Below, in pieces: positions 3,280-26,400 of a stretch of 64,000 bases of DNA. The notes beneath the pieces are model-generated. The model was not told where the DNA came from. It saw only the letters and a program-made list of their open reading frames with translations, and searched no databases. The DNA lies in IMG/VR virus record IMGVR_UViG_3300020196_000023; one strand, 5' to 3'. The translations under genes and the position numbers were made by a program. The stretch's first letter is position 1. Every line of letters begins with the position of its first letter. This DNA is from an uncultured virus (IMG/VR IMGVR_UViG_3300020196_000023). Lineage: Duplodnaviria; Heunggongvirae; Uroviricota; Caudoviricetes.

Positions 3280-4701
3280 ATGATTAGAATAAAAATATTA
3301 AATGAATCAAAACAGTTATTAAATGAAGTTTCTTTTGAAGATGCTAAGAAAACTCTTGATGGTAGTAAATTTGTTAAGAGATTAAAAGCACTATCCAATA
3401 TAATTGGACCATTGACAGGTTTAGAAATTTTTAAAAACAATCCTGAACATGAAAATTTTATACTTTATATAAAAAGAGACATTGAAGATACTATTCCATA
3501 TGACATTCCAGATAACAGTAAAGGATTGGCATTATTGTGGTTAAAACAAAAATTAATAGAAGATCCAAAAGGATATTTTAAACATCAACAAGCCGATACT
3601 AGAAACGCAATTGAAAGATTTTTTCAATATAACGGCTCTCAGCAAATGCCTAACTTTATTAATCCTGTAGAAAAAAAGGATCTTAATAAAGTAGAATCTC
3701 TTGATGAATTGCAAAAGTTAGTAAAAGAGGCGACTCCATTATATAATAAATATCAAGAAGAAAGACAGAATAAAGATGTCGAATCAGGAACAGAAAAAAT
3801 ATACGATGGTCCTGAATGGACTATATTAGCAGCACACAATAAGGGTGCAGCGTGTGAATTAGGTAAAGGCACAAGCTGGTGTACCGCTGCGCCCGGTCTT
3901 CATTATTTTAATGAATATTATCAAGAAGGTAGTCCATTATTTATCTTTATTAGTAAAGAAAACCCTATTGAGAAATATCAATTCAGTTACTCTTCTCAAC
4001 AGTTTATGGACAAAGAAGATCGTTCTATATATAAAGAAGATATATTTTATAAATTAAATAAGCTTTTGATTAGTACCCCCGGAATTAAAGAAAAATATCC
4101 TATTTTAAAAGACTTTATATATCATAAAGTGGGCGATAGGATGGTGCAGATTAAAAAAACCAATGATGTTACATATTACATGGTAAACAAAAGAACTATA
4201 ATGACTAAAGATAGTGAAGGACTTATTAATCATTTTGACTATGACAATCAACTTCATAGAGAAAACGGTCCAGCTGTTTATAATAAATATGAATATCAAA
4301 AAGATCCTGAAAACGCACCCCAAACTTGGGCAAAGCATGGGAGTACCTTTAGAATCGATGGTCCAGCAGAAATAGATAAAGAAGGTTATAAATATTGGTT
4401 AATATATGGTAAATATATAAATATAGATCCAAAATATAAATACGGTGGTCCATCAATAATTACGCCAGACGGTAAACAAATATGGCGTATCGGAGTTGAG
4501 CGGTTTACTAACGAACAAGATTTCATTAAGTATATTGAAGATTTTATAAAAAATGAAGACAAGTTAGATGAATATGAAACTTATCCAATAAAAAATTATT
4601 TACAGAAACTTAATGATTATAGGCAAGAATATTTAAAATCTAATTCTAAAAAATTAAAAGAAAATAAGAAATTTGTTATAAGAATTCTAAGGAATACATA
4701 A
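3280..4701 (+). CDS. Hypothetical phage protein with PcfJ-like TxWC motif and HRxxGPA repeats
   Basis: AACELGKGTSWCTAA; LHRENGPA, FRIDGPA, YGGPS repeats; ACTATTTAT 6 nt before ATG. Confidence 0.7.
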   Translation: MIRIKILNESKQLLNEVSFEDAKKTLDGSKFVKRLKALSNIIGPLTGLEIFKNNPEHENFILYIKRDIEDTIPYDIPDNSKGLALLWLKQKLIEDPKGYFKHQQADTRNAIERFFQYNGSQQMPNFINPVEKKDLNKVESLDELQKLVKEATPLYNKYQEERQNKDVESGTEKIYDGPEWTILAAHNKGAACELGKGTSWCTAAPGLHYFNEYYQEGSPLFIFISKENPIEKYQFSYSSQQFMDKEDRSIYKEDIFYKLNKLLISTPGIKEKYPILKDFIYHKVGDRMVQIKKTNDVTYYMVNKRTIMTKDSEGLINHFDYDNQLHRENGPAVYNKYEYQKDPENAPQTWAKHGSTFRIDGPAEIDKEGYKYWLIYGKYINIDPKYKYGGPSIITPDGKQIWRIGVERFTNEQDFIKYIEDFIKNEDKLDEYETYPIKNYLQKLNDYRQEYLKSNSKKLKENKKFVIRILRNT

Positions 4702-6014
4702 TGTCAAAAAAAACCTATATTCTAGATACGAATGTGTTGTTGAGCGATGCAGAAGCGATTAACTCGTATAAGAATAATGACGTTGGGATACCCTTAAAGG
4801 TATTAGAAGAAGTAGATAAGCATAAGAAGCGTCAAGATGGTGTTGGCGCTAACGCTAGACAGTTTATACGTCTATTAGACGCGCTTCGTGAAAAGGGCGA
4901 CATAGTTGAGGGTATTAAACTTGGAAAGGGTAGAGGCTCCATTAGGACGCTTAAATGCGATTTAAGCCTGTTGCCAGATGCTTATGATAGGCAACATCCC
5001 GATAATCAAATACTTGCTTGTGCATTAACAGAGATTAAAGAAGTTGGTGACAACAAAAATATCATTCTTGTCTCTCAAGATATTAACATGAGAGTTAAGT
5101 GCGACTCTGTTGGTGTTAAAACAGATGATTATATTCCTAATCAAATAGTAGAAAGGGCAGAAGAAGTATTTACTGGCTTCACACAATATCTTGTAGATGA
5201 TGCTCTTATAGATCGTTTCTATGCTGGTGAAAAGATTATGCTAGAGCAAAAGGATATTAAGTTATATCCTAACCAGTTTGTTATGTTAGTATCAAACGCT
5301 AATGACAAAAAAACAGCTTTAGCAAGATTTAAAGCATACAATCATCCACTAAGCAAGACAAAAGAATATAAAAATGGCGTTTGGGGTATACATGCCAAGA
5401 ATAAAGAGCAGCAATTTGCCCTTGAATTATTAATGGACCCAGATGTAAAGATTGTTTCTATCATTGGTCGTGCTGGTGGAGGTAAAACTCTTAATGCTTT
5501 GGCAGCTGGTCTTCAACAAATTCTTGATGATAAAGTATATAAGAAACTAATTGTTTCCCGACCAGTACAGCCAATGGGTAAAGATATCGGCTATCTTCCC
5601 GGTACTCTAGAAGAAAAGATGTCCCCTTGGTTAGCACCTGTACAAGATAATTTAGAGTTCCTTATGGGTGACGATAAAGCACATTTACAGATGCTAATGG
5701 AAGCTGGTACTATTGAAATGGAAGCCCTCACATACATTCGTGGTCGTTCCATCGCTAATGCATTTATTATTATTGATGAATCACAAAACTTAACATCCCA
5801 TGAATTAAAGACTATTATTACTCGCGTTGGCGAAGGAACAAAGATTATATTAACAGGAGATATCGAACAGATAGACAATGCTTATGTAGATGCAACAACT
5901 AACGGTCTTACATACGCTGTTGAAAAATTAAAAGACTATGAAATTTCTGGTCATATTACCTTGAAAAAAGGTGAAAGATCTGCTGTCGCAAGCCTCGCCG
6001 CATCAGTATTATAG
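4701..6014 (+). CDS. phoH: PIN-domain PhoH-family ATPase
   Basis: N-terminal YILDTNVLL PIN motif; GRAGGGKT Walker A; DIGYLPG, YIRGRS, IIDESQN, TGDIEQID. Confidence 0.93.
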   Translation: MSKKTYILDTNVLLSDAEAINSYKNNDVGIPLKVLEEVDKHKKRQDGVGANARQFIRLLDALREKGDIVEGIKLGKGRGSIRTLKCDLSLLPDAYDRQHPDNQILACALTEIKEVGDNKNIILVSQDINMRVKCDSVGVKTDDYIPNQIVERAEEVFTGFTQYLVDDALIDRFYAGEKIMLEQKDIKLYPNQFVMLVSNANDKKTALARFKAYNHPLSKTKEYKNGVWGIHAKNKEQQFALELLMDPDVKIVSIIGRAGGGKTLNALAAGLQQILDDKVYKKLIVSRPVQPMGKDIGYLPGTLEEKMSPWLAPVQDNLEFLMGDDKAHLQMLMEAGTIEMEALTYIRGRSIANAFIIIDESQNLTSHELKTIITRVGEGTKIILTGDIEQIDNAYVDATTNGLTYAVEKLKDYEISGHITLKKGERSAVASLAASVL

Positions 6015-6024
6015 AAAGAAAAAT

Positions 6025-6282
6025 ATGGAAATCATTAATCAAGATATTTTAAAACCAGTAGAAAAAATTAATCCCATGAAAGAATGGCTTGTAGATTATG
6101 TCGGCAACAAACTACAACCAGCTAATAACGAAGTTACAGTAGCAATGCTAGTAGAAGCAATGGCAGAAGAATTCCCAGAATTTGTTATGGCAGTTGCAGA
6201 AGAAAACTTTATTCGTGGTTATCAACAAGCATTCAAAGATTTAGAAGCAAATGGTGAAATAACTCCAACAAAAAATGAGTAG
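6025..6282 (+). CDS. Hypothetical protein
   Basis: ATG 6025 just after phoH stop; coupled to next gene. Confidence 0.7.
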   Translation: MEIINQDILKPVEKINPMKEWLVDYVGNKLQPANNEVTVAMLVEAMAEEFPEFVMAVAEENFIRGYQQAFKDLEANGEITPTKNE

Positions 6283-6955
6283 TGTAAATTATATAAAAAA
6301 ATCTTCTGCTAAGAATGCTGCTCAAGTAAGAGAATATAGCTTATTTGGCAGCATTCTTGTTATTGTTGCTAACCCACTTCCTGAAGAAATTAATTTAAAA
6401 AGTGTTTTAAAACGTATAGAAAAAAATATACCAAAACATTTATTTATTAATTTAGATATCATTTATTTTGGTGATTTTAAAGAATTAAAAGCTCGACAAG
6501 TTTCTTCTGCTTATATGGACGGAGGAATATATTTAACCAATCAACAAGTATCTGATGAAGAAATATATAATTCAATTGTACATGAGTTGGCACATAGTAT
6601 AGAAAAAAACTTTGAAAATGATTTATACGGAGATGATAAAGTATTAGAAGAGTTTTTAAATAAACGTAAAAAATTAAAAAGCATTTTAGAATCTAATGGT
6701 CTTTATTGTGCTGATTCTCTATATTTAAGACCAGAATTTACAAGAGATTTTGATGATTTTCTGTTTAAAAAAGTTGGCTACGATAAATTAACATTATTAA
6801 TTTCAAATCTGTTTATTTCTCCCTATTCGCCAACATCATTAAGAGAATATTTTGCTTCTGGATTTGAGTATTATTATTGCGGAGACAATCCAGAATATAT
6901 ATCTCAAATATCTCCAAAGCTTTATAAAAAAATTATTTACTTGACAAAGAAGTAA
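6275..6955 (+). CDS. Zincin-like metallopeptidase domain protein
   Basis: IVHELAHS (HExxH) and downstream REYFA. Confidence 0.65.
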   Translation: MSSVNYIKKSSAKNAAQVREYSLFGSILVIVANPLPEEINLKSVLKRIEKNIPKHLFINLDIIYFGDFKELKARQVSSAYMDGGIYLTNQQVSDEEIYNSIVHELAHSIEKNFENDLYGDDKVLEEFLNKRKKLKSILESNGLYCADSLYLRPEFTRDFDDFLFKKVGYDKLTLLISNLFISPYSPTSLREYFASGFEYYYCGDNPEYISQISPKLYKKIIYLTKK

Positions 6956-6992: not shown

Positions 6993-7766
6993 ATGTCTAA
7001 TCATATATCTTTTTCTGCTTTAAAGCTTTGGAATGACTGCCCTTTTAAATATAAATTAACATACATTGATAATGTTCAAAAGTTTCGTGGTAGCGAATAT
7101 ACAATCTTTGGTACTTCGCTGCATGAAGCTTGTGAAAAAAAGCTTCTAGACAATAATATTAATGAAGTAGAATATTTTTTAAATAAGTTTGATGAAGAGC
7201 TAAAAAATATTCCTTCTGATGTTCAACTAGATCCCAATCTTTTAACTGAAATGAAAGAGCAAGGTAAGACACTTGCATCTATGGCATTGCCTGCCCTTAA
7301 AGAAAAGTTTGGTAATTTTAAAGTCTTAGCAGCAGAAGAGGACATCTTTGAAACCATTAAAAAAATTCCTGAATTGAATTATAATTTTAAAGGTTATATT
7401 GATTTAATTATTCAAACAGAAGATAATAAGATACATATCTTAGATTGGAAAACATGTGCTTGGGGTTGGGATGCTAAAAAGAAAAGTGATCCAATGATTA
7501 CTTACCAGTTAACTTTTTATAAATATTTCTATTCTCAAAAGCATAATATAGATCCAAAAAATATTGAAACATATTTTGCGCTTCTTAAGAGAACTGCTAA
7601 GAAAGACAATGTAGAAATTTTCCGCGTAACAAGCGGAGACAAAAAAACAGAAAATGCATTTAACTTATTAACAAAAGCACTTTATAGTATTAATAAAGGT
7701 TTTTTTCCAAAGAACCGTCTTGCTTGCAAATATTGCGAGTATAATAAAACAAAGGATTGTCCCTAG
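6993..7766 (+). CDS. PD-(D/E)XK exonuclease, Cas4/AddB-like
   Basis: SFS..CP, GTSLH, E..KGYIDL..ILDWKT, QLTFY, C-terminal CKYC..C (four-Cys arrangement). Confidence 0.85.
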   Translation: MSNHISFSALKLWNDCPFKYKLTYIDNVQKFRGSEYTIFGTSLHEACEKKLLDNNINEVEYFLNKFDEELKNIPSDVQLDPNLLTEMKEQGKTLASMALPALKEKFGNFKVLAAEEDIFETIKKIPELNYNFKGYIDLIIQTEDNKIHILDWKTCAWGWDAKKKSDPMITYQLTFYKYFYSQKHNIDPKNIETYFALLKRTAKKDNVEIFRVTSGDKKTENAFNLLTKALYSINKGFFPKNRLACKYCEYNKTKDCP

Positions 7767-8767
7767 TGAAAACAGCAATTATTACAGGTATTACTGGGCA
7801 AGATGGTAGCTATCTTGCAGAACTGCTTTTAGAAAAAAATTATAAAGTAGTTGGCCTTGTTCGTAGAAGTGCGATGGAAGACAAAAAGCTTTATAATATC
7901 CAACATCTTTTAAATAACTCTAATTTAATTATAGAAAATGGTGATTTAACCGATTCTCCATCTTTGTGGAGAGTTATAGGCAGTCATCAGCCCGATGAGT
8001 TTTATAATTTAGCAGCACAAAGTCATGTTGGCGCCTCCTTTACATCCCCAGAAAGTACTTTTCAAATAAATGCAACTGGCGTATTAAATTGTTTAGAAGC
8101 GATAAGGGTACTTAAACGAAATACAAAGTTTTATCAAGCTTCTACTAGCGAAATGTTTGGCGATAATTCTAGCGCTCCTCAAGGAGAAGAAACACCCCTT
8201 TCTCCAGTTTCTCCATACGCTTGTGCAAAAGTAGCGGCACATCATTTAATAATAAATTATCGTAAAGCATATAATATATTTGCTTGCTCTGGTGTTCTTT
8301 TCAATCATGAAAGCCCAAGGCGTGGCGAACAGTTTGTTACGAGAAAGATCACAAAAGCAGCTGCCAGAATCAAGCTTGGTTTACAAAAAGAATTACGTCT
8401 TGGTAATCTTGAAGCAAAACGAGATTGGGGATATGCAAAAGAATATGTAGAAGGTATGTGGATGATGATGCAGCATCATGCGCCCGACGATTACGTTCTA
8501 GGCACAGGAAAAACATACACTATTAAACAATTCATTGATTGCATAAGTGAAATAGCTGGTTATAATTTAATGCAATATGTTGTTATTGATGATAAATATA
8601 AACGTCCTAGCGAGGTTCCGTTATTATTAGCTGATCCAACAAAAGCTAAAAAAGTCTTAGGCTGGGAGCCTAAAACCAATTTAAAACAATTAGCAGAATT
8701 AATGTATAATTGTGATTTAGAAAAGGAAAAAATCTTAAAGGAGATTTTAGATGAACAAAAAAATTAA
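7766..8767 (+). CDS. gmd: GDP-mannose 4,6-dehydratase
   Basis: GITGQDGSYL, NLAAQSHV, FYQASTSE, SPYACAK, FNHESPRRG, RDWG; GTG start overlaps upstream TAG. Confidence 0.95.
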   Translation: MKTAIITGITGQDGSYLAELLLEKNYKVVGLVRRSAMEDKKLYNIQHLLNNSNLIIENGDLTDSPSLWRVIGSHQPDEFYNLAAQSHVGASFTSPESTFQINATGVLNCLEAIRVLKRNTKFYQASTSEMFGDNSSAPQGEETPLSPVSPYACAKVAAHHLIINYRKAYNIFACSGVLFNHESPRRGEQFVTRKITKAAARIKLGLQKELRLGNLEAKRDWGYAKEYVEGMWMMMQHHAPDDYVLGTGKTYTIKQFIDCISEIAGYNLMQYVVIDDKYKRPSEVPLLLADPTKAKKVLGWEPKTNLKQLAELMYNCDLEKEKILKEILDEQKN

Positions 8768-10240
8768 AATATTAACTCTTTCTGACCATCCGTTAACCAG
8801 CCGGTAACAGCGGATATAAAACTGGGTGAATTGCTGGAAACTTTCATAAATAATTTCGCTACAGCATAGTTGGAAACGACAAGTGCAAAAGCCAAAAAGA
8901 AATTATTGAAACAATCAGCAGCCAAGTGCCTGTCTTGAAAAAGTGGCAAAGGTTCAGAGACTACGGTTAGCCTAAACATTTTATGTATGGCAATGATCCG
9001 ACAGCGCCCAGCACTTTAATAAGTGATGATATAGTCCAACAAAGTGTCACCATCTGGTGTAGGTAGTCAGTCCAACTACATCTTCCAAGGTCTGTTAAAA
9101 ACAGGCAAATATCAAATTATTTCTTTAGGTGGTGCCATTAAACATCAAGACTATCGCCCTGTCAAGTTCCATGAATATGGCGATGATTTCGTGATTATCC
9201 CAGTTAATGGCTATGGAACGCCAGAATTAATTCGTACAATTTTAATGAAAGAAAAGCCTGATATCATTTGGATGATGACTGATCCAAGATTTTATACGTG
9301 GTTATGGAATATGGAACAAGAGATTCGTCCTAATGTTCCAATTGTTTATTATCATGTGTGGGACAACTATCCATATCCTAAATTTAATCGTGCATATTAT
9401 CAATCGAATGACATGATAGCTACGATTTCTAAACTTACAAGCGATATTGTTAGGACAGTAGCACCAGAAGTCGAAGAACGTTATGTGCCACATGCGGTAA
9501 ATCCAGATTTATTTAAGATTTTAGATGAAAAAGAATATGCACATTTACGTAATCCAAATAAAACACTTTTCTTCTGGACTAACAGAAATGCCAGACGTAA
9601 AATGAGCGGCAGCGTTGTATGGTGGTATAAAGAATTTCTTGATAAAGTTGGACACGATAAAGCATTTTTGCTAATGCATACAGATCCTAAAGATCCTCAT
9701 GGACAAGATCTTGTAGCAATTGCAGAAGAATTAGGCTTGACTAAAGAAAATTTTGCAATTTCTGCTGGTAAAGTTTCACAAGCGGAAATGACTAAATTTT
9801 ATAATGCTGCCGATTGTACAATAAACATCAGCGATGCAGAAGGCTTTGGTTTGTCATGTTTAGAAAGTCTTTCTTGCGGTACTCCTGTTATAGCTAATAA
9901 AACTGGTGGAATGCAAGATCAATTAACAGATGGTGTAGATACATATGGTGTTCTTATAGAACCTGCTAGTCGTGCAGTTATTGGCTCTCAAGAGGTACCA
10001 TATATCTATGAAGATCGTGTTAGTAACAAAGATGTAGTTGAAGCGATGATTAAAATTCATAATATGTCACGCGAAGAACGTAAAGCGCTTGGTCGTAAGG
10101 GACATGACAATGTGCAAAAGAATTTTAATTTTGCAACTTTCCAAGAAACTTGGGATAAACTATTAACAGAAGTTCACGAAAAATGCGGTTCTTGGGAAAC
10201 ACGTAAAAATTATAAATCCCTAAGCGTAAAGGAATACTAA
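8751..10240 (+). CDS. GT4 (GT-B) glycosyltransferase, spliced join(8751..8793,9045..10240), 412 aa
   Basis: AAGGAG SD; exon1 MNKKIKILTLSDHP+T joins TG-TCA to read SDHPLSPSGVG; RNARRK and EGFGLSCLE motifs. Confidence 0.88.
8794..9044 (+). mobile_element. Self-splicing group I intron, 251 nt, no ORF
   Basis: P AATTGCTG, Q AATCAGCAG, R GTTCAGAGACTA (8952-63), S GATATAGTCC (9028-37); P3 CTGGGTG/CGCCCAG; P8 CACTT/AAGTG; P1 ATCCGT/GCGGAT with U8793-G8810 wobble; terminal G9044. Confidence 0.93.
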
Positions 10241-10241
10241 A

Positions 10242-12185
10242 ATGAAAAAAATTTTAATCTCTGGTCCTGTGTTGTCAAAATCTGGATACGGAAAGATGTC
10301 TCAGTTTGCGTATCGTTCTCTAAAAGATAGAACTGATGTGGATTTATATATTATTCCAACTGCTTGGGGAAATACTGGTTGGCATTTTGAAGATAACGAA
10401 GAAAGACGCCACATTGATTCTCTTGTGGCAAAAACACAAACATATATTCAACAAAGCAATGGTCAGCCGCAATTTGATGTTGCAATTCAAATTTCTATTC
10501 CAAATGAATGGAAAAAGATGGCACCAGTAAACATTGGTTATACCGCTGGTATTGAAACGAACCTTATATCTCCAACTTGGCTACAACCTTGTCAGCAAAT
10601 GGATAAGATTATTGTTATCAGCGAACACGCTAAAGCTGGCTTTGTTAATACAATCTTTGGAAATCCGCAAGGACAGCAGTTTAAAGTTACTACACCGGTA
10701 GAAGTAGTTCATTTACCTTATCAGGATGCCACTAAAAAGGCTCTAGAATTGGATTTAAGGCACGATTTCAACTTCTTGGCTGTATGTCAATGGGGACCAA
10801 GAAAAAACTTAGAACAGACTATTGTGGGCTTTATAGAAGAATTCCGCAAAGAAGAAGTTGGATTAGTATTAAAAATTAATTCTGCAAATGATTCTATCAT
10901 GGATAGAACGTATACCGGGAAACGTTTGGAACAGCTATTATCTGCTTATCCTGACCGTAAATGCACTGTTACATTAGTTCACGGTCATTTAAGCGAAGGT
11001 GAAATGGAATCACTTTACGTTCATCCAAAGATTAAGGCAATTGTTTCTACAACTCACGGTGAAGGGTTTGGTTTACCATTGTTAGAAGCTGCCGCAAATG
11101 AACTTCCTGTGCTTGCAACTGATTGGAGTGGTCATACAGACTTCCTATACATGCCAGACGGAGAAGAAAAGAAGCGTATGTTTGGTAAGATTGATTATGA
11201 CTTAAAACCTATCGAAGCAGCACATGTTTGGAAGGGTGTTCTAGAAGAAGGAACTCAATGGGCATTTCCAAAGACGGCATCTTATAAAGAAAAACTCCGT
11301 GATTGTTATAAAGATTATGGCCGCTATAAGTCACAAGCCAAAAAATTAGCTCCTTGGGTAAAAGAAAATTTTAATGAAAGTAAATTAGAAAATAAATTTT
11401 CTGTTTTATCTGCGGGAGAATTGCCAATACAAGTTAAAACAGAAGAATTGCCTTTGATTTCTATTTTTGCTTCAGTTTATAATTCTGATGAATACATAGA
11501 ACAATATTTAGATGATGTAACTAGACAGAGCATTTTTAAAGATAAATGTGAATTAATTCTTATTAATCCCAACTCTCCCGGTAATGAAGAAATAATTATT
11601 AAAAAATATATGGAAAAATATCCAAATATTAAATATATTAAATTGGATCACGATCCGGGTATTTATGATACTTGGAATCAAGCAATCAAATTATGTTCTG
11701 GCGAATACATAACAAATGCTAATTTAGATGATAGAAAATCTCCATTATCAATAGAAAAACACGCTAAAGCGCTTTTTTCTAATCCAAATGTAGACTTGGT
11801 ATATGCAGATAGTTATATTGTTACTGAATCTAATAAACGTTGGGAAGATATTAAAGAAGATACACAAAAATATAATTTTGAACAGTTTTCTCTAGATGCA
11901 ATGTTAAGAGGCAATCCACCACATAATAATCCAATGTGGCGTAAGACTATGCATAATAAAAACGGTTGGTTCAACCAAAAATATAAATCTGCTGCTGATT
12001 GGGATTTCTGGTTAAAATGCGCGTTTAATGGTTCAAAATACATGAAAATAAATGAAGTATTGGGTATTTATTATCACAATCCAAAAGGTATGTCTACCAA
12101 TCCCGAAAATAGCTCTTGGAAGAGAGAAGAAGAAAAAGAAATATTTAAAAAATACATGAACATGTATCAGGAAAGAAATAAGTAA
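10242..12185 (+). CDS. Fused GT4 + GT2 glycosyltransferase
   Basis: SGYG, RKN, GEGFGLPLLEA in N half; ISIFASVYN, NANLDD, AADWDFW in C half. Confidence 0.88.
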   Translation: MKKILISGPVLSKSGYGKMSQFAYRSLKDRTDVDLYIIPTAWGNTGWHFEDNEERRHIDSLVAKTQTYIQQSNGQPQFDVAIQISIPNEWKKMAPVNIGYTAGIETNLISPTWLQPCQQMDKIIVISEHAKAGFVNTIFGNPQGQQFKVTTPVEVVHLPYQDATKKALELDLRHDFNFLAVCQWGPRKNLEQTIVGFIEEFRKEEVGLVLKINSANDSIMDRTYTGKRLEQLLSAYPDRKCTVTLVHGHLSEGEMESLYVHPKIKAIVSTTHGEGFGLPLLEAAANELPVLATDWSGHTDFLYMPDGEEKKRMFGKIDYDLKPIEAAHVWKGVLEEGTQWAFPKTASYKEKLRDCYKDYGRYKSQAKKLAPWVKENFNESKLENKFSVLSAGELPIQVKTEELPLISIFASVYNSDEYIEQYLDDVTRQSIFKDKCELILINPNSPGNEEIIIKKYMEKYPNIKYIKLDHDPGIYDTWNQAIKLCSGEYITNANLDDRKSPLSIEKHAKALFSNPNVDLVYADSYIVTESNKRWEDIKEDTQKYNFEQFSLDAMLRGNPPHNNPMWRKTMHNKNGWFNQKYKSAADWDFWLKCAFNGSKYMKINEVLGIYYHNPKGMSTNPENSSWKREEEKEIFKKYMNMYQERNK

Positions 12186-12186
12186 T

Positions 12187-13062
12187 ATGGTTTTGTTTAC
12201 TGTTACTAATAATGTTTTTGCACCATGCGTTTTTAACCTTATAGAAAGTTATAAACTTTATTCTTGTAATAAAGAAATATTTATAATTTATTATGATTTA
12301 AATGATGACTATATAAAGCTTTTTAAAAATAAATATGGCTCACAAGTCAATTTAATACCAGTAGAGAAGGAATGCGAGCATGCTTTTAATTCAAGATTTT
12401 ATTTTCCAAAAGCCTATGCTCTTAAAATAGCGCATAGTTTAAATAAGCCTTTTATGTTATCCGATGCTTCAAATGCTTTTTTGTATAATACTTATGAATT
12501 AGAATATTTAGTTAAAGAAAAAAGTAGATTTTTTATTGAATATCCAACAGAAATATTTAAAAATAAATATTGGGCAACTAAAAAAAGTTTAGAAATAATG
12601 AAGTGCAATTCTGTACATCATAAAGAAGCACAATCCTATTGGTCTGGTTTTCATGCTTATGAGCCAACAGACGAAAATAAGCAAATGATATTTGATCAAT
12701 ATAAATTAATGTTGAATTCTGATATAGCTGGTCCTTCAAATTTATTAAACAAACCAGATGGTAGCGATGCAGATTGCATTGCTCACAGAAACGATCAAAC
12801 AGTTTTATCTTTAATGATAAATAAGTATGGCTTTAATCAAGCATTTAATATTGATAAATACAATAAATTTGGCGATCAGCAAACAGCCAAATTTATGTTA
12901 CCAGATATATTTCGCAATTTTGACGAAAGAAAAATTTGTCTATATTCTAGATTTTCAAAAAATAATAATTTTAAATTTATTGATAATGATCTAAAATCTA
13001 AATTAGAAAAAATTTTTGAAATGTATAATATAGATAGAAATACAGGTAAAATTATAAAATGA
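12187..13062 (+). CDS. Putative GT-A-like glycosyltransferase
   Basis: YYDL..PK..SDAS..HRNDQTVLSL motifs; operon context. Confidence 0.55.
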   Translation: MVLFTVTNNVFAPCVFNLIESYKLYSCNKEIFIIYYDLNDDYIKLFKNKYGSQVNLIPVEKECEHAFNSRFYFPKAYALKIAHSLNKPFMLSDASNAFLYNTYELEYLVKEKSRFFIEYPTEIFKNKYWATKKSLEIMKCNSVHHKEAQSYWSGFHAYEPTDENKQMIFDQYKLMLNSDIAGPSNLLNKPDGSDADCIAHRNDQTVLSLMINKYGFNQAFNIDKYNKFGDQQTAKFMLPDIFRNFDERKICLYSRFSKNNNFKFIDNDLKSKLEKIFEMYNIDRNTGKIIK

Positions 13063-13823
13063 ATAATATAAAAGTTTTGCTTTCTTGTGATGATAATCCA
13101 TTTTATTATAATTTTTGGAATGATGTTTCATATGTATGGAAACAAATATTTAATTTTGACCCGGTATTAATATATGTATCAGATGTTGAAAATAATAATC
13201 TTAGTAGTGCTAATGGACAAATAATTAGAGTTAATAAAATAGAAAATATTCCCACTTATCTACAAGCACAATTAGCAAGAGTATATTATACTTCTCTTTA
13301 TAAAAATGATGTCTGTATGTTATCTGATATAGACATGATACCTATTAACAAAAGTTTTTTTAATAAAGAAAAAATCTTAGAACATACTAAAGATAATTCT
13401 ATGTTTCATTTGAATCCTACCCCAAGAGAGTTTGGTCAATATCCAATGTGTTATTACTGTGGCACAGGACAGGCATTTGCATTTGCTACTAGTGATAAAT
13501 CATGGGAAAATTTTATGAAAGAAGTAGTATCATGCAATTTTTCTGTTAACAAATTAAATTACAATCTTCCTTCGCATTTAAAAGGAAAAGATTTATGGTT
13601 TAGCGATGAATTATTTTTATATACAAAATTAAATCAAACAAAAACAAATATTAAAATAAATAATCAAATAATTAAAAGTTTTCAAAGATTAGATAGAGAA
13701 CAAATACTATCTTTAGATCATAAATCAATAAATAATTACATTGATTGTCACATGCCGCGCCCTTTTGATTTATATGAAAAACAAATTAATTATATTATAC
13801 ATGGTATAGAAAATGCACAATGA
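13059..13823 (+). CDS. Putative glycosyltransferase
   Basis: LSDIDM DxD motif, SDE, DCH; operon context. Confidence 0.5.
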   Translation: MNNIKVLLSCDDNPFYYNFWNDVSYVWKQIFNFDPVLIYVSDVENNNLSSANGQIIRVNKIENIPTYLQAQLARVYYTSLYKNDVCMLSDIDMIPINKSFFNKEKILEHTKDNSMFHLNPTPREFGQYPMCYYCGTGQAFAFATSDKSWENFMKEVVSCNFSVNKLNYNLPSHLKGKDLWFSDELFLYTKLNQTKTNIKINNQIIKSFQRLDREQILSLDHKSINNYIDCHMPRPFDLYEKQINYIIHGIENAQ

Positions 13824-14616
13824 AGATTTTTTTAATACGATTATAGATAAAAAAGAATATATATGTGGCAATTCATTTATTGATATTTCTAATGGAAAGG
13901 ATATATTATTCTGTAAAATAGACAATGTATCAGAACACTACGGAAAGCAAATTGACACCTTCATTACGCATAATGGTGATTATAGCGTAGATCAAAATGC
14001 CTATAATATTGGACCAAAGTGCAATAAATGGTATGGACAAAATAAAAATATAAATATGGAAAAGGTACTATCTATACCTATAGGATTAGAAAATTTTGAA
14101 CCTGAATTTTCATTTAAAAGTAATTATGGCAGATATTCTACTATGCCACCGATGGGTTACCAAAAAAAAGAGTATATATCTTTTTTATCATCCAACTGTA
14201 ATGAACATAAAAATTTAATATATTTAAACTTTAATTCTACTACATTCCCTACAGAAAGAAATTATGTAAAAAGTTTATTTTTTAATGAATCTTGGGTTAC
14301 TAAAGAAAATAATGTTGATTGGAAAATATATTATAATTCATTAATAAATAGCAAATTTTGTTTTTCTCCACGCGGCAATGGTATTGACTGTCATAGAACA
14401 TGGGAAGCGCTATATTTAAGAACAATACCAATATTAAAAAAAGAATTTTATATGGAAGAATTTTCCGATCTTCCTATACTTTTTGTTGATCATTGGTCGC
14501 AAATAAATGAAGATTTTTTAAATATAAGTTATGAACAAATGATAAAAAAACAGTATAATTTAGATAAATTAAAAATCTCATTTTGGAAAAGGCATATATT
14601 AAATGCCAATAATTAA
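13813..14616 (+). CDS. Exostosin/GT47-like glycosyltransferase
   Basis: SKFCFSPRGNGIDCHRTWEALY..IP motif. Confidence 0.7.
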   Translation: MHNEDFFNTIIDKKEYICGNSFIDISNGKDILFCKIDNVSEHYGKQIDTFITHNGDYSVDQNAYNIGPKCNKWYGQNKNINMEKVLSIPIGLENFEPEFSFKSNYGRYSTMPPMGYQKKEYISFLSSNCNEHKNLIYLNFNSTTFPTERNYVKSLFFNESWVTKENNVDWKIYYNSLINSKFCFSPRGNGIDCHRTWEALYLRTIPILKKEFYMEEFSDLPILFVDHWSQINEDFLNISYEQMIKKQYNLDKLKISFWKRHILNANN

Positions 14617-15385
14617 TTTTTGGTTCGGCAGATTAGGTAATAATATACAGCAACTTTCTAATGCTATATTTTATTCACAAAATAATAATGTTAATTTTTC
14701 TTCTCCAATGCATCCATTTATAAAATGTTTTAGTATTATCAATGGCAAAGAAGATGATTTTAGTTCAAGATTCTTTTTTTATAACGGTTCACAAAAAGAT
14801 TTTGAATGTGATGAAGAATTGTTAAATAAAGCTAGAAGAGATATATGTTTAAAATACATAACGCCTAATTTAAATATATCGTTTGAAAAACCATTTTCTG
14901 ACGATACATTAGTTATACATCTTAGATCTGGTGACGTTTTTATATCTAATCCACCTTCTACTTATACTCAAAACCCACTTTCTTTTTATAAAAAAATAAT
15001 AAAAAACTTTAAAAAAATTATAATAGTTAGTGAAGACAATAAACATCCACTACTTCAAGAATTATTAAAAGAAGAGAACGTTTCTTATCAATCATCGAGT
15101 ATATCAGACGATTTTTCTACATTAATAAGAGCAAAACATTTAGCTACTTCAGGGGTTGGTACGTTTTCTATAGCAGCTGCTCTTTGTTCAATAAATTTAA
15201 AAAAACTCTATTGTTCTGATATATTTTGTAACGAACATTTAAATCCTACAATGTTGCTTAACAGCGATATAGAAGTTGAAATGTATAATATATCAAATTA
15301 TATAAAAATTGGCGATTGGAAAAACACAATTGAACAAAGAAAAATTATGCTTGAACATGAGATAAAATATGTTAATACCTTATAA
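14603..15385 (+). CDS. GT11-like fucosyltransferase
   Basis: GRLGN, HLRSGD, SED, DF..GTFS motifs. Confidence 0.7.
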   Translation: MPIINFWFGRLGNNIQQLSNAIFYSQNNNVNFSSPMHPFIKCFSIINGKEDDFSSRFFFYNGSQKDFECDEELLNKARRDICLKYITPNLNISFEKPFSDDTLVIHLRSGDVFISNPPSTYTQNPLSFYKKIIKNFKKIIIVSEDNKHPLLQELLKEENVSYQSSSISDDFSTLIRAKHLATSGVGTFSIAAALCSINLKKLYCSDIFCNEHLNPTMLLNSDIEVEMYNISNYIKIGDWKNTIEQRKIMLEHEIKYVNTL

Positions 15386-15995
15386 AAAAATAATAGAAAA
15401 ATATAATTTAAATATCAAAAATATATTACATATAGGCGCTCATAACGCTGAAGAAAAAGATGATTATTTTGATAATGGATGTAAAAAAGTAATTTGGGTT
15501 GAAGCAAATCCCCAGCTAATAGAAAATTTGTCAAAGACAATTAAAGATGATAATAACATTATTTTAGAAGCCATAATATCTAATATTGATAATAAAGAAA
15601 TAAATTTTAATTTAACAAATAACGGTCAATCTTCTTCTATTTTAAATCTTGGTTTACATAAAAATTTATTTCCTGATATTGTAGTTAATAAAACAATTTG
15701 TACAAAGACAATTACAATTAAAACTCTTTTTGAACAAAATAAGCTAAGTATTAAAGATATAGATTTTATAAATCTTGATATACAAGGGGCAGAATTATTA
15801 GCTCTTCAGGGAATTGGTGATGAATTAGAAAACGTGAAAGCGATTTTTACTGAAATAAATACTGATTATGTATATGAAAACTGTGCGCTTGTGGAACAAA
15901 TAGATTATTTTCTTTCTTTATATAGCTTTAATAGAGTAGAAACAGTAATGTGGTGTGATCATCCTTGGGGCGATGCTTTGTATGTGAAACAATAA
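15369..15995 (+). CDS. FkbM-family methyltransferase
   Basis: HIGAH, VEANP, SSSIL, LDIQGAEL, WGDALY. Confidence 0.88.
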   Translation: MLIPYKKIIEKYNLNIKNILHIGAHNAEEKDDYFDNGCKKVIWVEANPQLIENLSKTIKDDNNIILEAIISNIDNKEINFNLTNNGQSSSILNLGLHKNLFPDIVVNKTICTKTITIKTLFEQNKLSIKDIDFINLDIQGAELLALQGIGDELENVKAIFTEINTDYVYENCALVEQIDYFLSLYSFNRVETVMWCDHPWGDALYVKQ

Positions 15996-16053
15996 AATAA
16001 ATAAACACGTTCTATACGATAACAATAACAACATAAATGCTTTTTGGCTTTAT

Positions 16054-16131
16054 ACAAGTTATTATAATTTAGAAAAATTAAAAATCTTATTTTGGAAGAA
16101 AACAATCCTAGGAAATTATTATGACAAATGA
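16054..16131 (+). pseudogene. 3' remnant of a second GT47-like gene
   Basis: Reads YNLEKLKILFWKKTIL versus YNLDKLKISFWKRHIL at end of ORF 13813; 16063-16097 matches 14554-14588 at 33/35 nt. Confidence 0.6.
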
Positions 16132-16690
16132 TCCATTCGCTACCCATCAACCAGTGTTAAAAAAAATTTTATCTATTTTAGATAAAAATAAACCAATTCT
16201 TGAATTAGGATGTGGTCATGGCAGTACGCCGTTGCTACACGACTTTTCTACATCGCATCAAGTTGAAATATATACATTTGATAATAATGAAGAATGGTTA
16301 AATATTATTTCTTCACAATATAAATCTCATAAATATCATAATTATATAAAAGTGAACGATTGGAATATTGAGTTAAAAGAATATTTAAAATATGATTGGT
16401 CATTAGTATTTATTGATCAAGCACCGTGGGAAGCCAGAACGTTATCTTTAGAGCTTTTTAAAAATAAAACTGATTATGTAATTTTACATGATTGTGATTA
16501 TTTTCCGGCTAATAATGTTTTTGGAAAACAATATAGTCCAATAATTTCTTCGCTATCAACTGGCCATAGAGATTATTCTGATATATTAAAATATTATGTA
16601 GAATATTTTCCTAAACACTTTGCTTCCCCTAGTGGTCCACCAACCCTTTTAGGAAGCCAATATAATAAAATAGATTTTTTAATAGAATAA
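16121..16690 (+). CDS. Class I SAM methyltransferase-like protein
   Basis: ILELGCGHGST, LVFID, ILHD. Confidence 0.65.
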   Translation: MTNDPFATHQPVLKKILSILDKNKPILELGCGHGSTPLLHDFSTSHQVEIYTFDNNEEWLNIISSQYKSHKYHNYIKVNDWNIELKEYLKYDWSLVFIDQAPWEARTLSLELFKNKTDYVILHDCDYFPANNVFGKQYSPIISSLSTGHRDYSDILKYYVEYFPKHFASPSGPPTLLGSQYNKIDFLIE

Positions 16691-16740
16691 TATATGCTAT
16701 CAACTATTAATTATTGATATAAAACAATGGAAATAAAATT

Positions 16741-17676
16741 ATGAAAATTATAACCGGCGGTTCTGGTTTACTTGGCAATGCGTTTAAAAAATTAACTCCT
16801 AATGCTCTTTTCCCAACTCATAAAGAACTTGATTTAGTAAATAAAAATAATACTCAAGAGTATTTTGATAAATTTGCAGCTAGTGTTGATACAATAATCC
16901 ATTTAGCAGGAAAAGTTGGCGGCGTAAAAGCCAATACGCAATATGTATCAGATTTTTATGAAGTTAATTCTGCTATTAACAACAATCTTATTACTACATG
17001 TGTAAAAAATAAAATTCCTACGCTCGTTTGTTGCTTATCAACTTGTATTTATCCAGATGAAAAATATATTAACTATCCATTGACAGAAGAACAATTACAT
17101 AATGGTCCACCGCATGATTCAAATTTTGGCTATGCTTATGCTAAACGAATGGTTGATATACAATTAAAGGCAGTGAGACAACAGTACGGTTATGATTATA
17201 TAGCAGTAATACCAAATAATATGTATGGCGAACATGATAATTTTGATTTAGAAAATGGTCATGTTATACCTTCTTTAATACGTAAGATTTGGGAAGCAAA
17301 AATAAATAACAAACCAACATTTGAAGTTTGGGGCGATGGAGAGATATATCGTGAATTTACTTACGCAGAAGATATTGCTAAAGTTATATTATTTTGCATA
17401 GATAAATATAATAGTTCAGAACCAATTAATATTGGAAGCACACAAGAGTATAAATTAAAAGATGTTATAGAAATTATTACTAAAGAGTTAAACTATAAAG
17501 GTAATATAGTTTTCGATACATCAAAACCAAAAGGACAAATTCGCAAACCAACAAGCAATAAAAAATTATTAGATCTTGGATGGAAAAATGAATGGTATAC
17601 GCCATTAGAAGTTGGTTTGAAAAAAACCTGTGATTGGTTTGTAAATAATTATCCTAATGTTAGAGGAGTTAAATAA
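16741..17676 (+). CDS. fcl: GDP-L-fucose synthase
   Basis: GGSGLLG, HLAGKVGG, LSTCIYP, YAYAK, PNNMYG, HVIPSLI, REF. Confidence 0.92.
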   Translation: MKIITGGSGLLGNAFKKLTPNALFPTHKELDLVNKNNTQEYFDKFAASVDTIIHLAGKVGGVKANTQYVSDFYEVNSAINNNLITTCVKNKIPTLVCCLSTCIYPDEKYINYPLTEEQLHNGPPHDSNFGYAYAKRMVDIQLKAVRQQYGYDYIAVIPNNMYGEHDNFDLENGHVIPSLIRKIWEAKINNKPTFEVWGDGEIYREFTYAEDIAKVILFCIDKYNSSEPINIGSTQEYKLKDVIEIITKELNYKGNIVFDTSKPKGQIRKPTSNKKLLDLGWKNEWYTPLEVGLKKTCDWFVNNYPNVRGVK

Positions 17677-18573
17677 GTGAAATGCTTGGTAACTGGCGGT
17701 GCTGGTTTTATTGGCTCTAATTTAGTAGATAGATTGTTACAGCTAGGACATGAAGTAATTGCAATAGATAACGAATCCTCAGAATCACATGAAAAATTTT
17801 ATTGGAATAATAAATGCGAAAATCACAAACTAGATATTTGTCATTACGAGCAAATATCTAGTTTATTTAAAAACGTAGATTGGGTATTTCATTTAGCAGC
17901 AGAAGCTAGAATTCAACCAGCTATTTTAAATCCATTAAAAGCTATTAAAACAAATGTTTTAGGAACTTGCAATGTGTTGCAGGCTTCTAGAGAACATAAA
18001 ATTAAAAGAGTAATTTATTCTTCTACTAGTTCTGCTTATGGTACAAAAAATATTCCACCGCTTGTTGAAACAATGCCAAAAGATTGCTTAAATCCATATT
18101 CTGTTTCAAAAACTTCAGGTGAAGAGCTGTGTTCAATGTATTACAAATTATTTGGTTTACAAACAGTGATATTTAGATATTTTAACGTTTACGGCGAAAG
18201 ACAACCGACAAAAGGACAATACGCTCCAGTGATCGGTTTATTTTTAAAACAAAAAGAATTAGGAAAAAAAATGACTGTTGTAGGTGATGGTTTGCAAAAA
18301 AGAGATTTTACTCATATTAGTGATATAGTAAATGCTAATATATTAGCCGCATCTACTAATAATCTTGAAATATTTGGAGAAACATTTAATATTGGAACAG
18401 GTATTAATTATAGTATATTAGAATTGGTTAAAATAATTGGTGGCGATTATGAGCATATACCAGCTAGAATGGGAGAAGCTAAAATAACTTTAGCAAATAT
18501 AAATAAAGCTAAAAATATGTTAAACTGGCAACCAAAAATTATATTAGAGGATTGGATAAATGCCAATAAATAG
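17677..18573 (+). CDS. NAD-dependent NDP-sugar epimerase/dehydratase
   Basis: TGGAGFIG, YSVSK, RYFNVYG, RDFTH. Confidence 0.9.
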   Translation: MKCLVTGGAGFIGSNLVDRLLQLGHEVIAIDNESSESHEKFYWNNKCENHKLDICHYEQISSLFKNVDWVFHLAAEARIQPAILNPLKAIKTNVLGTCNVLQASREHKIKRVIYSSTSSAYGTKNIPPLVETMPKDCLNPYSVSKTSGEELCSMYYKLFGLQTVIFRYFNVYGERQPTKGQYAPVIGLFLKQKELGKKMTVVGDGLQKRDFTHISDIVNANILAASTNNLEIFGETFNIGTGINYSILELVKIIGGDYEHIPARMGEAKITLANINKAKNMLNWQPKIILEDWINANK

Positions 18574-23403: not shown

Positions 23404-26400
23404 ATGAGTAATTTTGAAGAAGTGAAATATCCACCAACCCCAAATTATGAAACACACTTCTTAAACAAAGAATCAGTTTATTTAGATGTGTCAAGAGAAG
23501 AATTGCTTCTTTCATCTAGTTTTAGCGTTAATACCACCAACAAAGCACCACAGAATACCAAAGTCACAATAATAGAAGAGGGTTTGGGTGTTAACGCACT
23601 TTGGAATTATGTAAAATATAATAACAAAAGTGTATATTTTTTAAGAGAAAATTTAACACCATTAAATGGCATAAAACAATCGATGCCATTAGCTATAGAT
23701 TCTGCATATCAACAAAATTTACAATCTCCAAAAATTGATTGGAGAGAACAAAAGCCAAATACAGTTTATTTAGACACATATAATGCTAAATTCTGTACTC
23801 ATATAGAATTACCATATGAAAAAGTAAACGGTAAAGAGGATTTAAAAGAAAAAATTAAAGAAGGCTATTATAAAGGCGTTGCTTTAATATTAAAGGAAAC
23901 TGCTAAACAATATGATATAGTTTATATTAATCAGCTAACTGATAGCTATTATAAATTTGCTGAAGCGGAAGAATATTTTTTTCCACTTAGGGAATGTTCT
24001 ACATTACGAGTTTTAGTTACTATATCATCAAAATATTTAAATTCTGGATTTATAAATAATAATAAAGTAAATAAAAAAGGTATTTATGAAGAAAAAGAAT
24101 TATTAGATCTTTTTAATTCACAGCTTTTTGATGAAGATACGTTTGGTTCTTCCGAAGGATCTGGACCCACTTCAGATCAAGACCAAATTAGTATATATGA
24201 AACTTTAGAATATAATAATTATGATTTATTTTCTAGACATATTAGCGAAATAAAAAATATATTAATCCAAAATCAAGTTATTTATGCCACTGGTCAATGG
24301 GATATAGTACCCGATGGTGTAAATTTAAACTTTTTAACTGAAATAGCAAATATAGAATTATTTTTTAATAAAATAAATAAATTTTTAGATAGTAATATAT
24401 CTAAGAAGCCAATTGATCAAGCTTTTAATATCAATAATCTTGTTAGTTCCATAGTTGGAGAGCCTTGGTCTGGTAATTTAAAATTTATATTAAACAAAAA
24501 CGACACTAAAATAGTTGATATACAATTTTTTGATAATTTTAATAATAAAATTCCTTTAAATATTGGCTATTATTCTATTTTGCAAGATGAAACAATATTA
24601 AATAAAACAACAATTAATTATTTAAAAAAAATTAAAAAACCAACCACTTTAGATGATATTTTACTTGGCATAAGTGGCAGCATTATGCCTTCTTTGCAAA
24701 GTGCTGCTTCCAGTTTAACGCTAGCAGTTACAAATCCAGAACAGGCATTAAAGAATTTAGCTGCCGACATACAAAATGCTCCTGAAAATATAGCGAATAA
24801 TTTAGCCAACGCAGCAGATAATGTAAGTTCTGGTATTGACAATGCAGCACAAAATATTCAACAACTAATACCAGATGAAATTTTAAAAAAGTTTTTAATT
24901 AATTATCACGAACCATCAATAACAGATATTATTAGAAGGCCGATAGATTTAGCACAGTGCGTGCAATCAAATTATAATTTATTAAAAGAAATAGAAAATA
25001 ATATAAAACCAGCAGCTTTAAGACAATTTGAATCTCAAATACAAGAGTATCAAAAAAGAAAAAAAGAATTTGATGGTAGCACGTTTGATAAAATATTATC
25101 TGGCGATATAAGTAAAACCTTTGATCCAAGATTAAGAAAATTATTTGGATTAGATCCAATAGATTTTTCTAATCCCATACGAGGATTAAATGAAATATTA
25201 GGAATTATCAATTTATTTGATATACAAAGATGGCTATTGGAATCATTAAAGTGCGGTACTCTTGATTTTGACCCACAACAATTTAATAAATTGTTAGAAC
25301 AATATGGTAATGTAAAAAAAGCTCTAGATGCGTTAGCTGTAATCTCTGTATGTAATCCAAATTTTACTAATGTTTTAAAATTATATACTTCTTTTACGCT
25401 GCCTTTATTACCTACTACTAATCCTAATCGCTCTTTAATTGAACAGCTTATAAAATTAGTTGTTCAAGTAACAAATGATATTGTTGTTTTGACTATTAGA
25501 CAGTTATTAACAAATTCATTTAAAAATTGCGCAGATGATAAGAGAAGAAATAATCTTCCTAATTCATTAAGCAATAACATAGATCCAAACGCTGGCTTTA
25601 ACGGGGCTGCTATTGATGATTTATTAAATGATATATCAGGTGGCATATATGATGAAAATGGAGAGATCATTCCAGAAGCTAGAGATGCCGCTAAACAAAA
25701 ATTGAAACAATTATTAGATGAGTTAAGTAATTGTTTATCTACTAGAGAATTGTGTGCATTATTGACTGGTAAAACAGTTAACGATTCTGTTATAGATGCG
25801 ATAGTATCATTTATAAAAAGAAAATATAACAATCCAAACGGTATTACTAATTTAGCAAATAAATTTAATAATAGAGATTATATTATAAATTTCTTTTTAG
25901 TCCTTGGTCGTAATCTTGGCGATGATTTATTAATTTGTGACGATATTTTAAATCAACCAGAAGATTTCAATAAGAATCCTCTTTGCGATGATGGAACAAT
26001 AAATAATCTACGTAAAAAATTATTGGGCGATAAAGGATTAACTCCTGATTTAATAGATGATTTATTAAAAGATATAAATGATAAAAAAGCTAAAAATCTT
26101 GATGATTTACTTAAGTTTTTAGATTCAGACGATCCATTTAAGTATGATAATATACCATCAGTATTATGCAAAGATGGTATACCTCCCGCAATTAAAGTAT
26201 CTCCGTCTATAGATAGTTTTAAGGGTTTGTTAAATGCTCTTTTTAGAGATGTATATGACAACTTTGATAGAGAATCAACTGAATGGTATAAAACCACTTA
26301 TTCTACTAAGGGTGGTCCTAAAACAATGTCTTTTGATGAAAGCGGCAAGCTAGTATTTGATACTAGTTCCGCTGGTGAAGCTACTGATTCTGATAAAAGC

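Follow-up and report, generated by a model that had tools for sequence, protein, structure and literature searches.

A stretch of 64,000 nucleotides (nt) from an uncultured virus of the Caudoviricetes (IMG/VR record IMGVR_UViG_3300020196_000023), in the following referred to as the window, carries a group I intron in a gene for a GT4 glycosyltransferase. This intron has no P9. The P9 arm is carried by nearly all group I ribozymes, and the contact between its loop and P5 (L9-P5) is one of the textbook clamps holding the two ribozyme halves together. With a probability of about 0.78, we interpret the intron as a working, secondarily minimized member of the IA type, in which the terminal G and P10 alone would choose the 3' splice site. 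Its phage host is an uncultured myovirus-like phage. The window intron and its P9-less relatives at the same gene site represent a natural, recurrent and apparently functional group I architecture without P9, as judged from comparative sequence analysis.

RF00028, the group I intron family, is the only Rfam family reaching its gathering threshold in the window (cmscan; 8755-9057, 76 bits at E=1.6e-17, the threshold being 50). Alignment with relatives establishes the predicted intron as positions 8794-9044 (251 nt; plus strand, as for all intron and exon features below), because ten intronless homologues read straight through the junction. Exon 1 (8751..8793) starts with ATG, comprises MNKKIKILTLSDHP plus the first base of a Leu codon, and ends in U8793. 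Exon 2 (9045..10240) provides the UG completing this codon, which is codon 15 of the glycosyltransferase gene, and continues with SPSGVGSQ... to the stop. Relatives of the exon-2 protein were found at 11 loci in viral contigs with 72-100% identity. Only one of these, a locus identical to the window, has an RF00028 match. The other ten have none and read ...SDHP(L/F/K)S(P/S)SGVG... without interruption, as compared with ...DHPL|SPSGVGSQ in the spliced reading of the window. Homology to the intronless genes begins at 9047, in exon 2. A boundary ambiguity of one base, U8794 being identical to U9045, is settled by two rules, the last base of the 5' exon being the U of a U-G pair (U8793-G8810) and that of the intron being G (G9044). 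The distribution of the intron is sporadic, with glycosyltransferase homologues at 90% amino-acid identity lacking it.

The position of the 3' splice site after G9044 is also fixed independently of the protein argument, because P10 co-varies. P10 is formed by GGUAACA (8803..8809), just 5' of the guide sequence, and UGUCACC of exon 2 (9045-9051), with one mismatch. Across 29 distinct introns at this gene site, including that of the window (see below), its five core pairs are 95.2% paired and 4/5 have changed on both sides, and the terminal G is invariant (29/29). These findings bear on the view that P9 is present after all, the true 3' splice site lying downstream and P9 being made by the presumed exon 2. 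In support of it, cmscan placed a terminal "P9" hairpin on 9040-9057. This hairpin, however, reaches 13 nt into exon 2, crosses the splice site and is poorly paired, while protein homology starts at 9047, the junction DHPL|SPSGVG is the one seen in the ten intronless loci, and the invariant terminal G and the co-varying P10 point to exactly the G9044 junction across the 29 introns. A downstream site with a P9 hairpin, by which the earlier note itself had expected to be overturned, is thus ruled out by protein homology and P10 covariation, and we assign it practically no probability. Since the Rfam alignment of the window intron ran into the exon, automatic annotation places the 3' end of such introns wrongly.

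The anatomy of the window intron was established by comparison with its relatives. In P1, the internal guide sequence GCGGAU (8810..8815) pairs with AUCCGU of exon 1 (8788-8793); none of the six pairs varies and all are formed throughout the 29 sequences (100%), including the U-G pair of the 5' splice site (29/29). J1/3, AUAAAA (8816..8821; [AG]UAAAA in 29/29 relatives), alone connects P1 directly to P3, and P2 is therefore absent. The 5' strand of P3, CUGGGUG (8822..8828), pairs with CGCCCAG (9005-9011; 100% paired, 3/7 pairs compensatory) and crosses P7, forming the pseudoknot. P4 consists of UGCUGG (8832..8837) and UCAGCA (8915-8920), 99.4% paired. P5 with its extended P5a-c arm (8842..8911, according to the minimum free energy fold) ends in GUUG-GAAA-CGAC with a GAAA tetraloop at 8873-8876, its distal helix being 97% paired with 6/8 compensatory pairs. 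P6/P6a/P6b (8922..8952) carries an invariant GAAA loop (8937-8940) and is 99-100% paired (7/9 pairs compensatory). The 5' strand of P7 (8957..8963), composed of G8957, the bulged A8958 and GACUA (8959-8963), pairs with UAGUCC (9032-9037) to form the predicted guanosine-binding helix; its five core pairs are invariant in 29/29, and the pair G8957-C9037 across the bulge is GC in 26 and AU in 3 introns. Between P7 and P3' lies a P7.1 hairpin (8964..9000) with CGG/UUA/GCC/ACAU arms, 97.3% paired in the 29 relatives with 5/9 pairs compensatory. The insert consists of this one hairpin, and there is no P7.2. P8 is a hairpin, CACUU-UAAU-AAGUG (9012..9025; 85.5% paired, 3/5 pairs compensatory), followed by J8/7 (AUGAUA, 9026-9031) and the 3' strand of P7, which together form the block TGATATAGTC (9026..9037), invariant in 29/29. 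At the usual place of P9 and P9.0 the intron has only the unpaired linker AACAAA (9038-9043) and G9044 (9038..9044), a tail that does not fold. As these six unpaired nucleotides alone separate P7 from the terminal G, there is neither a P9 nor a P9.0. Signs of a homing endonuclease were not found, that is, no open reading frame (ORF) in the 251-nt intron and no endonuclease identified nearby in the window.

The description in the earlier note holds in all of these details: seven nucleotides (AACAAAG) between TAGTCC of P7, ending at 9037, and the terminal G; ATAAAA alone between P1 and P3; a P7.1-type insert at 8964-9000; an extended P5 with a GAAA tetraloop; and, above all, the absence of P9, now that the 3' end is fixed by intronless homologues and P10. 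The note had further counted the absence of P2 as part of the minimal architecture. P2 is indeed missing, but this is unremarkable, since the available part of Hausner (2014) states that some group I introns lack P2, while it places P9 within the P3-P9 catalytic domain.

For a comparative study, viral contigs were scanned with the core spacing GTTCAGAGACTA-N55-85-GATATAGTC, a pattern that is independent of the sequence 3' of P7. This general scan yielded at least 119 loci, nearly all of which have a hairpin with a GNRA loop directly after P7, and among the matches listed three loci are introns in the same glycosyltransferase gene and at the same codon. After further scans the family at this site comprised 52 loci, corresponding to 29 distinct introns with that of the window included. 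Members were recognized by the guide-sequence pattern, the 3' motif of P7 and an in-frame exon 2 of the form P-[LFIMVK]-x(1-3)-[ST]-G-[VI]-[GAC]. Left out before counting were 103 general-scan loci with another guide sequence and 115 loci from the viral and metagenome scans that show the pattern without the P7 3' motif and appear to represent chance matches in unrelated genes; the metagenome scan pattern CATCCGT...GCGGATRTAAAA was rejected as too loose. Five more loci (L273, L282, L323, L344, and L372) were left out because the exon-2 test failed or the locus ended, although by eye L282 (with a longer hairpin), L372 (with the same tail as L139) and L344 (an incomplete sequence) are family members.

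The family forms a graded series with respect to P9, where the tail is taken from the base after UAGUC through the terminal G. 19 of the 29 unique introns, including that of the window, have tails of 8-22 nt without a fold, and all 19 lack the P5 motif described below. Three show a shrunken hairpin (25-nt tail, 7-bp stem, 3-nt loop), and seven have a tail of 29-31 nt with a P9 of 7-8 bp capped by GAAA. The window tail measures 8 nt (CAACAAAG); the nearest relative, L277, has the tail CAUCAAAG and shares 85% core identity. Sister introns at the same gene site still carry P9, which makes P9 ancestral in the family and places the window intron among the members that lost it. The P9-less forms are the majority at the glycosyltransferase site (19/29), and the window intron is a derived member of the family. 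The P9-bearing sisters, all from uncultured phage contigs (L139/L077, L153, L216, L283, L338, L395, and L400), agree with the window intron in insertion site, guide sequence GCGGAU, J1/3 [AG]UAAAA without P2, P7.1 insert, P6b GAAA loop, extended P5 arm with GAAA loop, and the J8/7-P7 block. They differ by their P9 of 7-8 bp with GAAA, the 29-31 nt tail and an internal loop CCU(A/U)AG...GAUUGG in P5. In one of them (L077:3-251), the C-terminal 83 amino acids (aa) of an ORF ending at the start codon of the glycosyltransferase gene show a pattern H-x-D-H...N that is HNH-like by eye. This upstream ORF matches 0 Pfam families, so that an endonuclease beside the intron is not established.

Across phage group I introns as a whole, P9-less forms are rare. 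By checked 3' splice sites, they account for at least 3 of the 112 unique loci of the general scan, namely L050, which belongs to the glycosyltransferase family, L052 and L128. This number is a lower bound, because the crude hairpin detector misclassifies (L052 and L128 were called "with hairpin", several imperfect P9s "without") and only loci with checked splice sites were counted. The earlier note had proposed a rare P9-less subclass: the subclass exists, and it is rare overall, but it is the majority within its own family. L052 (338-549) and L128 are cyanophage psbA introns inserted after ...AACGCT, in which P7 and the terminal G are 10-11 nt apart and P10 comprises 5 bp (CACAA with UUGUG). 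They constitute a second, unrelated P9-less intron family, which shares the lack of P9 with the window intron and differs from it by a P2 hairpin. In a further viral contig (L115), P7 of a generic phage intron gives way directly to a ribosome-binding site and the start of an ORF (MKLYGIIYCAYNK...), at the usual place of P9; by eye this ORF is GIY-YIG-like.

We asked what was lost together with P9. Apart from the P9 columns themselves, the alignment columns that best discriminate P9-bearing from P9-less introns are those of both P5 strands and of an insertion in the loop of P1. The 3' strand of P5 contains GAUU[AG]G in 7/7 P9-bearing introns and 0/22 others, and its 5' strand contains CCU[AUG][AG](A)G in 6/7 and 0/22, respectively. 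Accordingly, P5 of the window lacks the CCU(A/U)AG...GAUUGG motif of its P9-bearing relatives. The asymmetric P5 loop of these sisters resembles the 11-nt GAAA receptor, without being identical to it. Most likely, this motif is the docking site of L9 and was lost together with the GAAA loop. The P1 loop has 15-16 nt in the P9-less introns and 9-10 nt in 6/7 P9-bearing ones, while the GAAA loops L5c and L6b are invariant irrespective of P9.

The secondary structure is well supported across the family. A hand-drawn structure was imposed on a MAFFT alignment of all 29 introns and compared with controls in which the pairing partners were slid by 1-3 columns, and with 500 shuffles. It is 90.2% paired, versus 31-40% with slid partners, and 45 of 80 pairs show compensatory, i.e., both-sided changes; the observed values were reached in 0/500 shuffles. 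The core pairs of P1 and P7 do not vary, and P3, P6 and P7.1 are 97-100% paired. The same structure is kept in the P9-less set: in a separate alignment these 19 introns are 92.2% paired with 39/80 compensatory pairs, and their P10 alone is 95.8% paired with 4/5 compensatory pairs. In all 29 introns the exon-2 frame runs on without a stop until the locus ends (17-128 codons). Core pairing, covariation and open frames kept after the loss of P9 are expected of ribozymes under selection rather than of wreckage.

Several observations weigh against our interpretation. The fold of the window intron as a single sequence is only modestly better than that of shuffled sequences (z=-2.06, with 7/200 shuffles equally good). 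Some of the covariation counted in the P9-less set could predate independent losses of P9. The association between P9 and the P5 motif comprises only 1-2 phylogenetically independent contrasts, leaving a sign test without power and making the association inseparable from shared descent. The number of losses itself was addressed with a tree of the core columns, from which P5, tail and exon columns had been removed. In the best tree the P9-less state requires 4 changes (bootstrap range 3-5), of which well-supported branches force 1, and an approximately unbiased test yields p values of 0.036 and 0.12 against one single P9-less and one single P9-bearing clade, respectively. Several independent losses of P9 are likely on this basis. 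Among the 29 introns, no element compensating for the missing P9 was found in P10 length, tails or loops. Finally, the locus was found in runs labelled lake-water metagenome, none of the listed runs being RNA.

One alternative is that the intron is decaying: the loss of P9 would have crippled splicing and the glycosyltransferase would be turning into a pseudogene, the intron being a lesion tolerated in a dispensable gene. In its favor, the listed runs that contain the locus include no RNA showing expression or splicing. The location of the gene in an accessory glycan cluster makes such dispensability plausible. The sequences do not look like those of a decaying element, however. The 19 distinct P9-less sequences retain their core pairs, compensatory changes and co-varying P10, and host frames are open throughout. 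Exon 2 of the window is full-length, with a 398-codon ORF, and 72-100% identical to its relatives. Moreover, with a dead intron near the gene start no protein would be made, yet the frame downstream of it is conserved. We therefore regard decay as very improbable.

The missing compensation bears on a different alternative, a trans-acting helper, which the earlier note had also raised, namely that the intron is real and P9-less but not self-sufficient, a phage or host protein such as a chaperone or a maturase-like factor replacing the L9-P5 clamp and positioning the 3' splice site. A group I fold that loses a tertiary clamp should be destabilized, and a longer P10 as compensation had to be rejected, since P9-less and P9-bearing introns have on average 4.9 and 4.6 contiguous pairs, respectively. 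Likewise, the tails of the family have only their initial CA and last G in common, with neither a shared motif nor a tail pairing. A helper would also be in accordance with Pombert (2013, PMC3873408), the available part of which calls P9 essential and takes its absence to imply a missing piece or accessory factors. On the other hand, none of the genes linked to the intron is a candidate for such a helper: its neighbors in the window are sugar-metabolism genes, and the only endonuclease-like upstream ORF in a relative (L077) has no Pfam match. P9-less forms are further spread over many divergent phage contigs and also appear in the second, psbA family, and with such a wide distribution a dedicated helper would need to be widespread as well. 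We consider dependence on a helper protein rather unlikely; dependence on a general chaperone is indistinguishable from self-splicing in silico.

A minimized but working ribozyme accordingly stays our preferred reading, and we infer that the window intron still splices without a dedicated helper. Its ancestors at the same gene site had a single P9 hairpin, whose GAAA loop most likely docked on a receptor-like internal loop of P5; the window lineage has lost both the GAAA loop of P9 and the P5 motif. Splicing would follow the standard two-step, guanosine-initiated pathway. After the first step, the terminal G would enter the P7 pocket on a short tether of 6 nt, while P10 alone, with 5-7 bp between exon 2 and the intron bases that immediately precede the guide sequence, would align the 3' exon. 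In place of P9 and P9.0, the shortness of the tether would deliver the 3' splice site to the core. A broader version of this idea has, in our estimate, about an even chance of being correct: a widespread lineage in aquatic phages would have shed P9/P9.0 together with the P5 docking site, possibly repeatedly, an unrelated psbA family would have done likewise, and protein-free self-splicing would proceed by a tether of 6-20 nt, the terminal G and P10.

If true, this would be the smallest natural architecture known that performs both splicing steps in cis, and the L9-P5 clamp would be dispensable in vivo. The natural series at one gene site, from a full P9 with receptor-like motif over a shrunken hairpin to neither P9 nor motif, amounts to an evolutionary experiment that addresses the amount of periphery required by a group I ribozyme and the way in which a 3' splice site is found without P9/P9.0. 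Provided that P9-less forms self-splice, they would offer compact scaffolds of ~250 nt for ribozyme engineering, with the 3' end almost on the core.

The exon-2 product matches Pfam Glycos_transf_1 and GT4 (ORF 9044-10240), and is preceded by a GDP-mannose 4,6-dehydratase (7757-8767; Pfam, window). Both belong to a glycan-biosynthesis block (7757-18573) that also encodes a 647-aa GT4/GT2 fusion, a GT47/RXYLT1-like ORF, an FkbM methyltransferase and two NAD-dependent epimerases. Downstream of the sugar cluster lie genes for the phage tail and baseplate, and among them are two very large ORFs (23404-28992, 1862 aa; 32677-41097, 2806 aa). Upstream of the cluster, the window has a tRNA-Ala (UGC) gene (770-848), a PIN domain fused to PhoH (PIN_4 + PhoH; ORF 4701-6014, 437 aa) and an ORF of 226 aa (6275-6955) whose Pfam matches are weak and of metallopeptidase type, the ATLF-domain match of 28.3 bits lying barely above the cut-off and Peptidase_M90 below cut-off; its product is probably a small zinc peptidase-like protein.

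The nearest among the records searched is an uncultured virus contig that has 75% of the window's sampled words in common and the same 76-bit RF00028 match. In 50,697 phage records, blastn with 8600-9300 gave no match and tblastn with exon 2 matched 9 records, all at <=32% identity; a glycosyltransferase intron in cultured phage records was thus not found by these searches. A two-piece match in Microcystis phage Mel-JY01 was rejected as an intron, having no Rfam match at E<=0.01. Four DNA runs were compared with the locus, and no contig joining the exons across the intron was observed, only related family members. In these comparisons (runs X11-X14 versus window 8500-9400), the contigs contain further introns of the family whose P1 loops and tails differ, so that several variants co-occur in the same kind of sample.

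How does the window intron relate to known systems? Its score above the RF00028 threshold, P1 with U-G, the P3-P8 core with the P3/P7 pseudoknot, P7 with its bulged nucleotide, the conserved J8/7, the terminal G and P10 are all features of group I introns that the window intron shows, but the P9 hairpin is lacking. Membership stands, if as an atypical member, because the catalytic definition does not rest on P9. The phage introns T4 td, nrdB and sunY and Twort orf142, which we take to belong to subgroup IA, likewise reside in protein-coding genes of tailed phages and share the P7.1-type insert and the conserved core. The window intron differs from IA phage introns in lacking P9, P9.0, P9.1, P9.2, P2, and a homing-endonuclease ORF. 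Extra pairings P7.1 (and P7.2) between P7 and P3' are given for IA2/IA3 in the available parts of Tourasse & Kolsto (2008) and Tourasse (2014), and a single P9 stem with a short 3' end after it for IA3 in that of Tourasse & Kolsto (2008). The latter arrangement is found in the seven P9-bearing sisters and neither in the window intron nor in the 18 other P9-less ones. At the insert position, where IA2 has P7.1 and P7.2, the window has one hairpin.

In the literature searched on P9 loss or deletion, most subscription journals and the classic 1990 structural catalogue lying outside the search, no contiguous natural P9-less intron was found. In a search with the same limits regarding subscription journals, no description of the present family turned up under group I introns in phage glycosyltransferase genes. 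The closest natural case is Pa.rnl.1 from the mitochondrion of Prasinoderma coloniale, which the available text of Pombert (2013, PMC3873408) models as a group I intron without P9. It is a trans-spliced, fragmented organellar IB intron for which a third piece or accessory factors are suspected, whereas the window intron is contiguous and has its 3' end pinned by intronless alleles and P10. For the Candida ribozyme, the accessible part of Bao (2008) mentions unpublished data according to which deletion of P9.2 and P9.0 hardly affects folding.

Within the cyanophages, the psbA intron of S-PM2 (AY329638.1) is, like that of the window, small, ORF-less and inserted into an auxiliary gene that belongs to an aquatic myovirus, and it shares the core spacing GTTCAGAGACTA...GATATAGTC. 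Its 3' tail is longer, however, and it retains a P9 (CCUGGUA-GUAA-UACCAGA), so that it was rejected as a published P9-less example; its insertion site lies 6 nt upstream of that of L052 and L128. Engineered "mini-ribozymes" of sunY and deletions in the P9 region of Tetrahymena reportedly demonstrate that catalysis can persist in a core lacking the P9 region. Such 3'-truncated ribozymes are laboratory constructs, usually requiring higher Mg2+ and often acting in trans. In contrast to them, the window intron is natural, belongs to a form kept in many lineages, and would have to support both splicing steps in cis.

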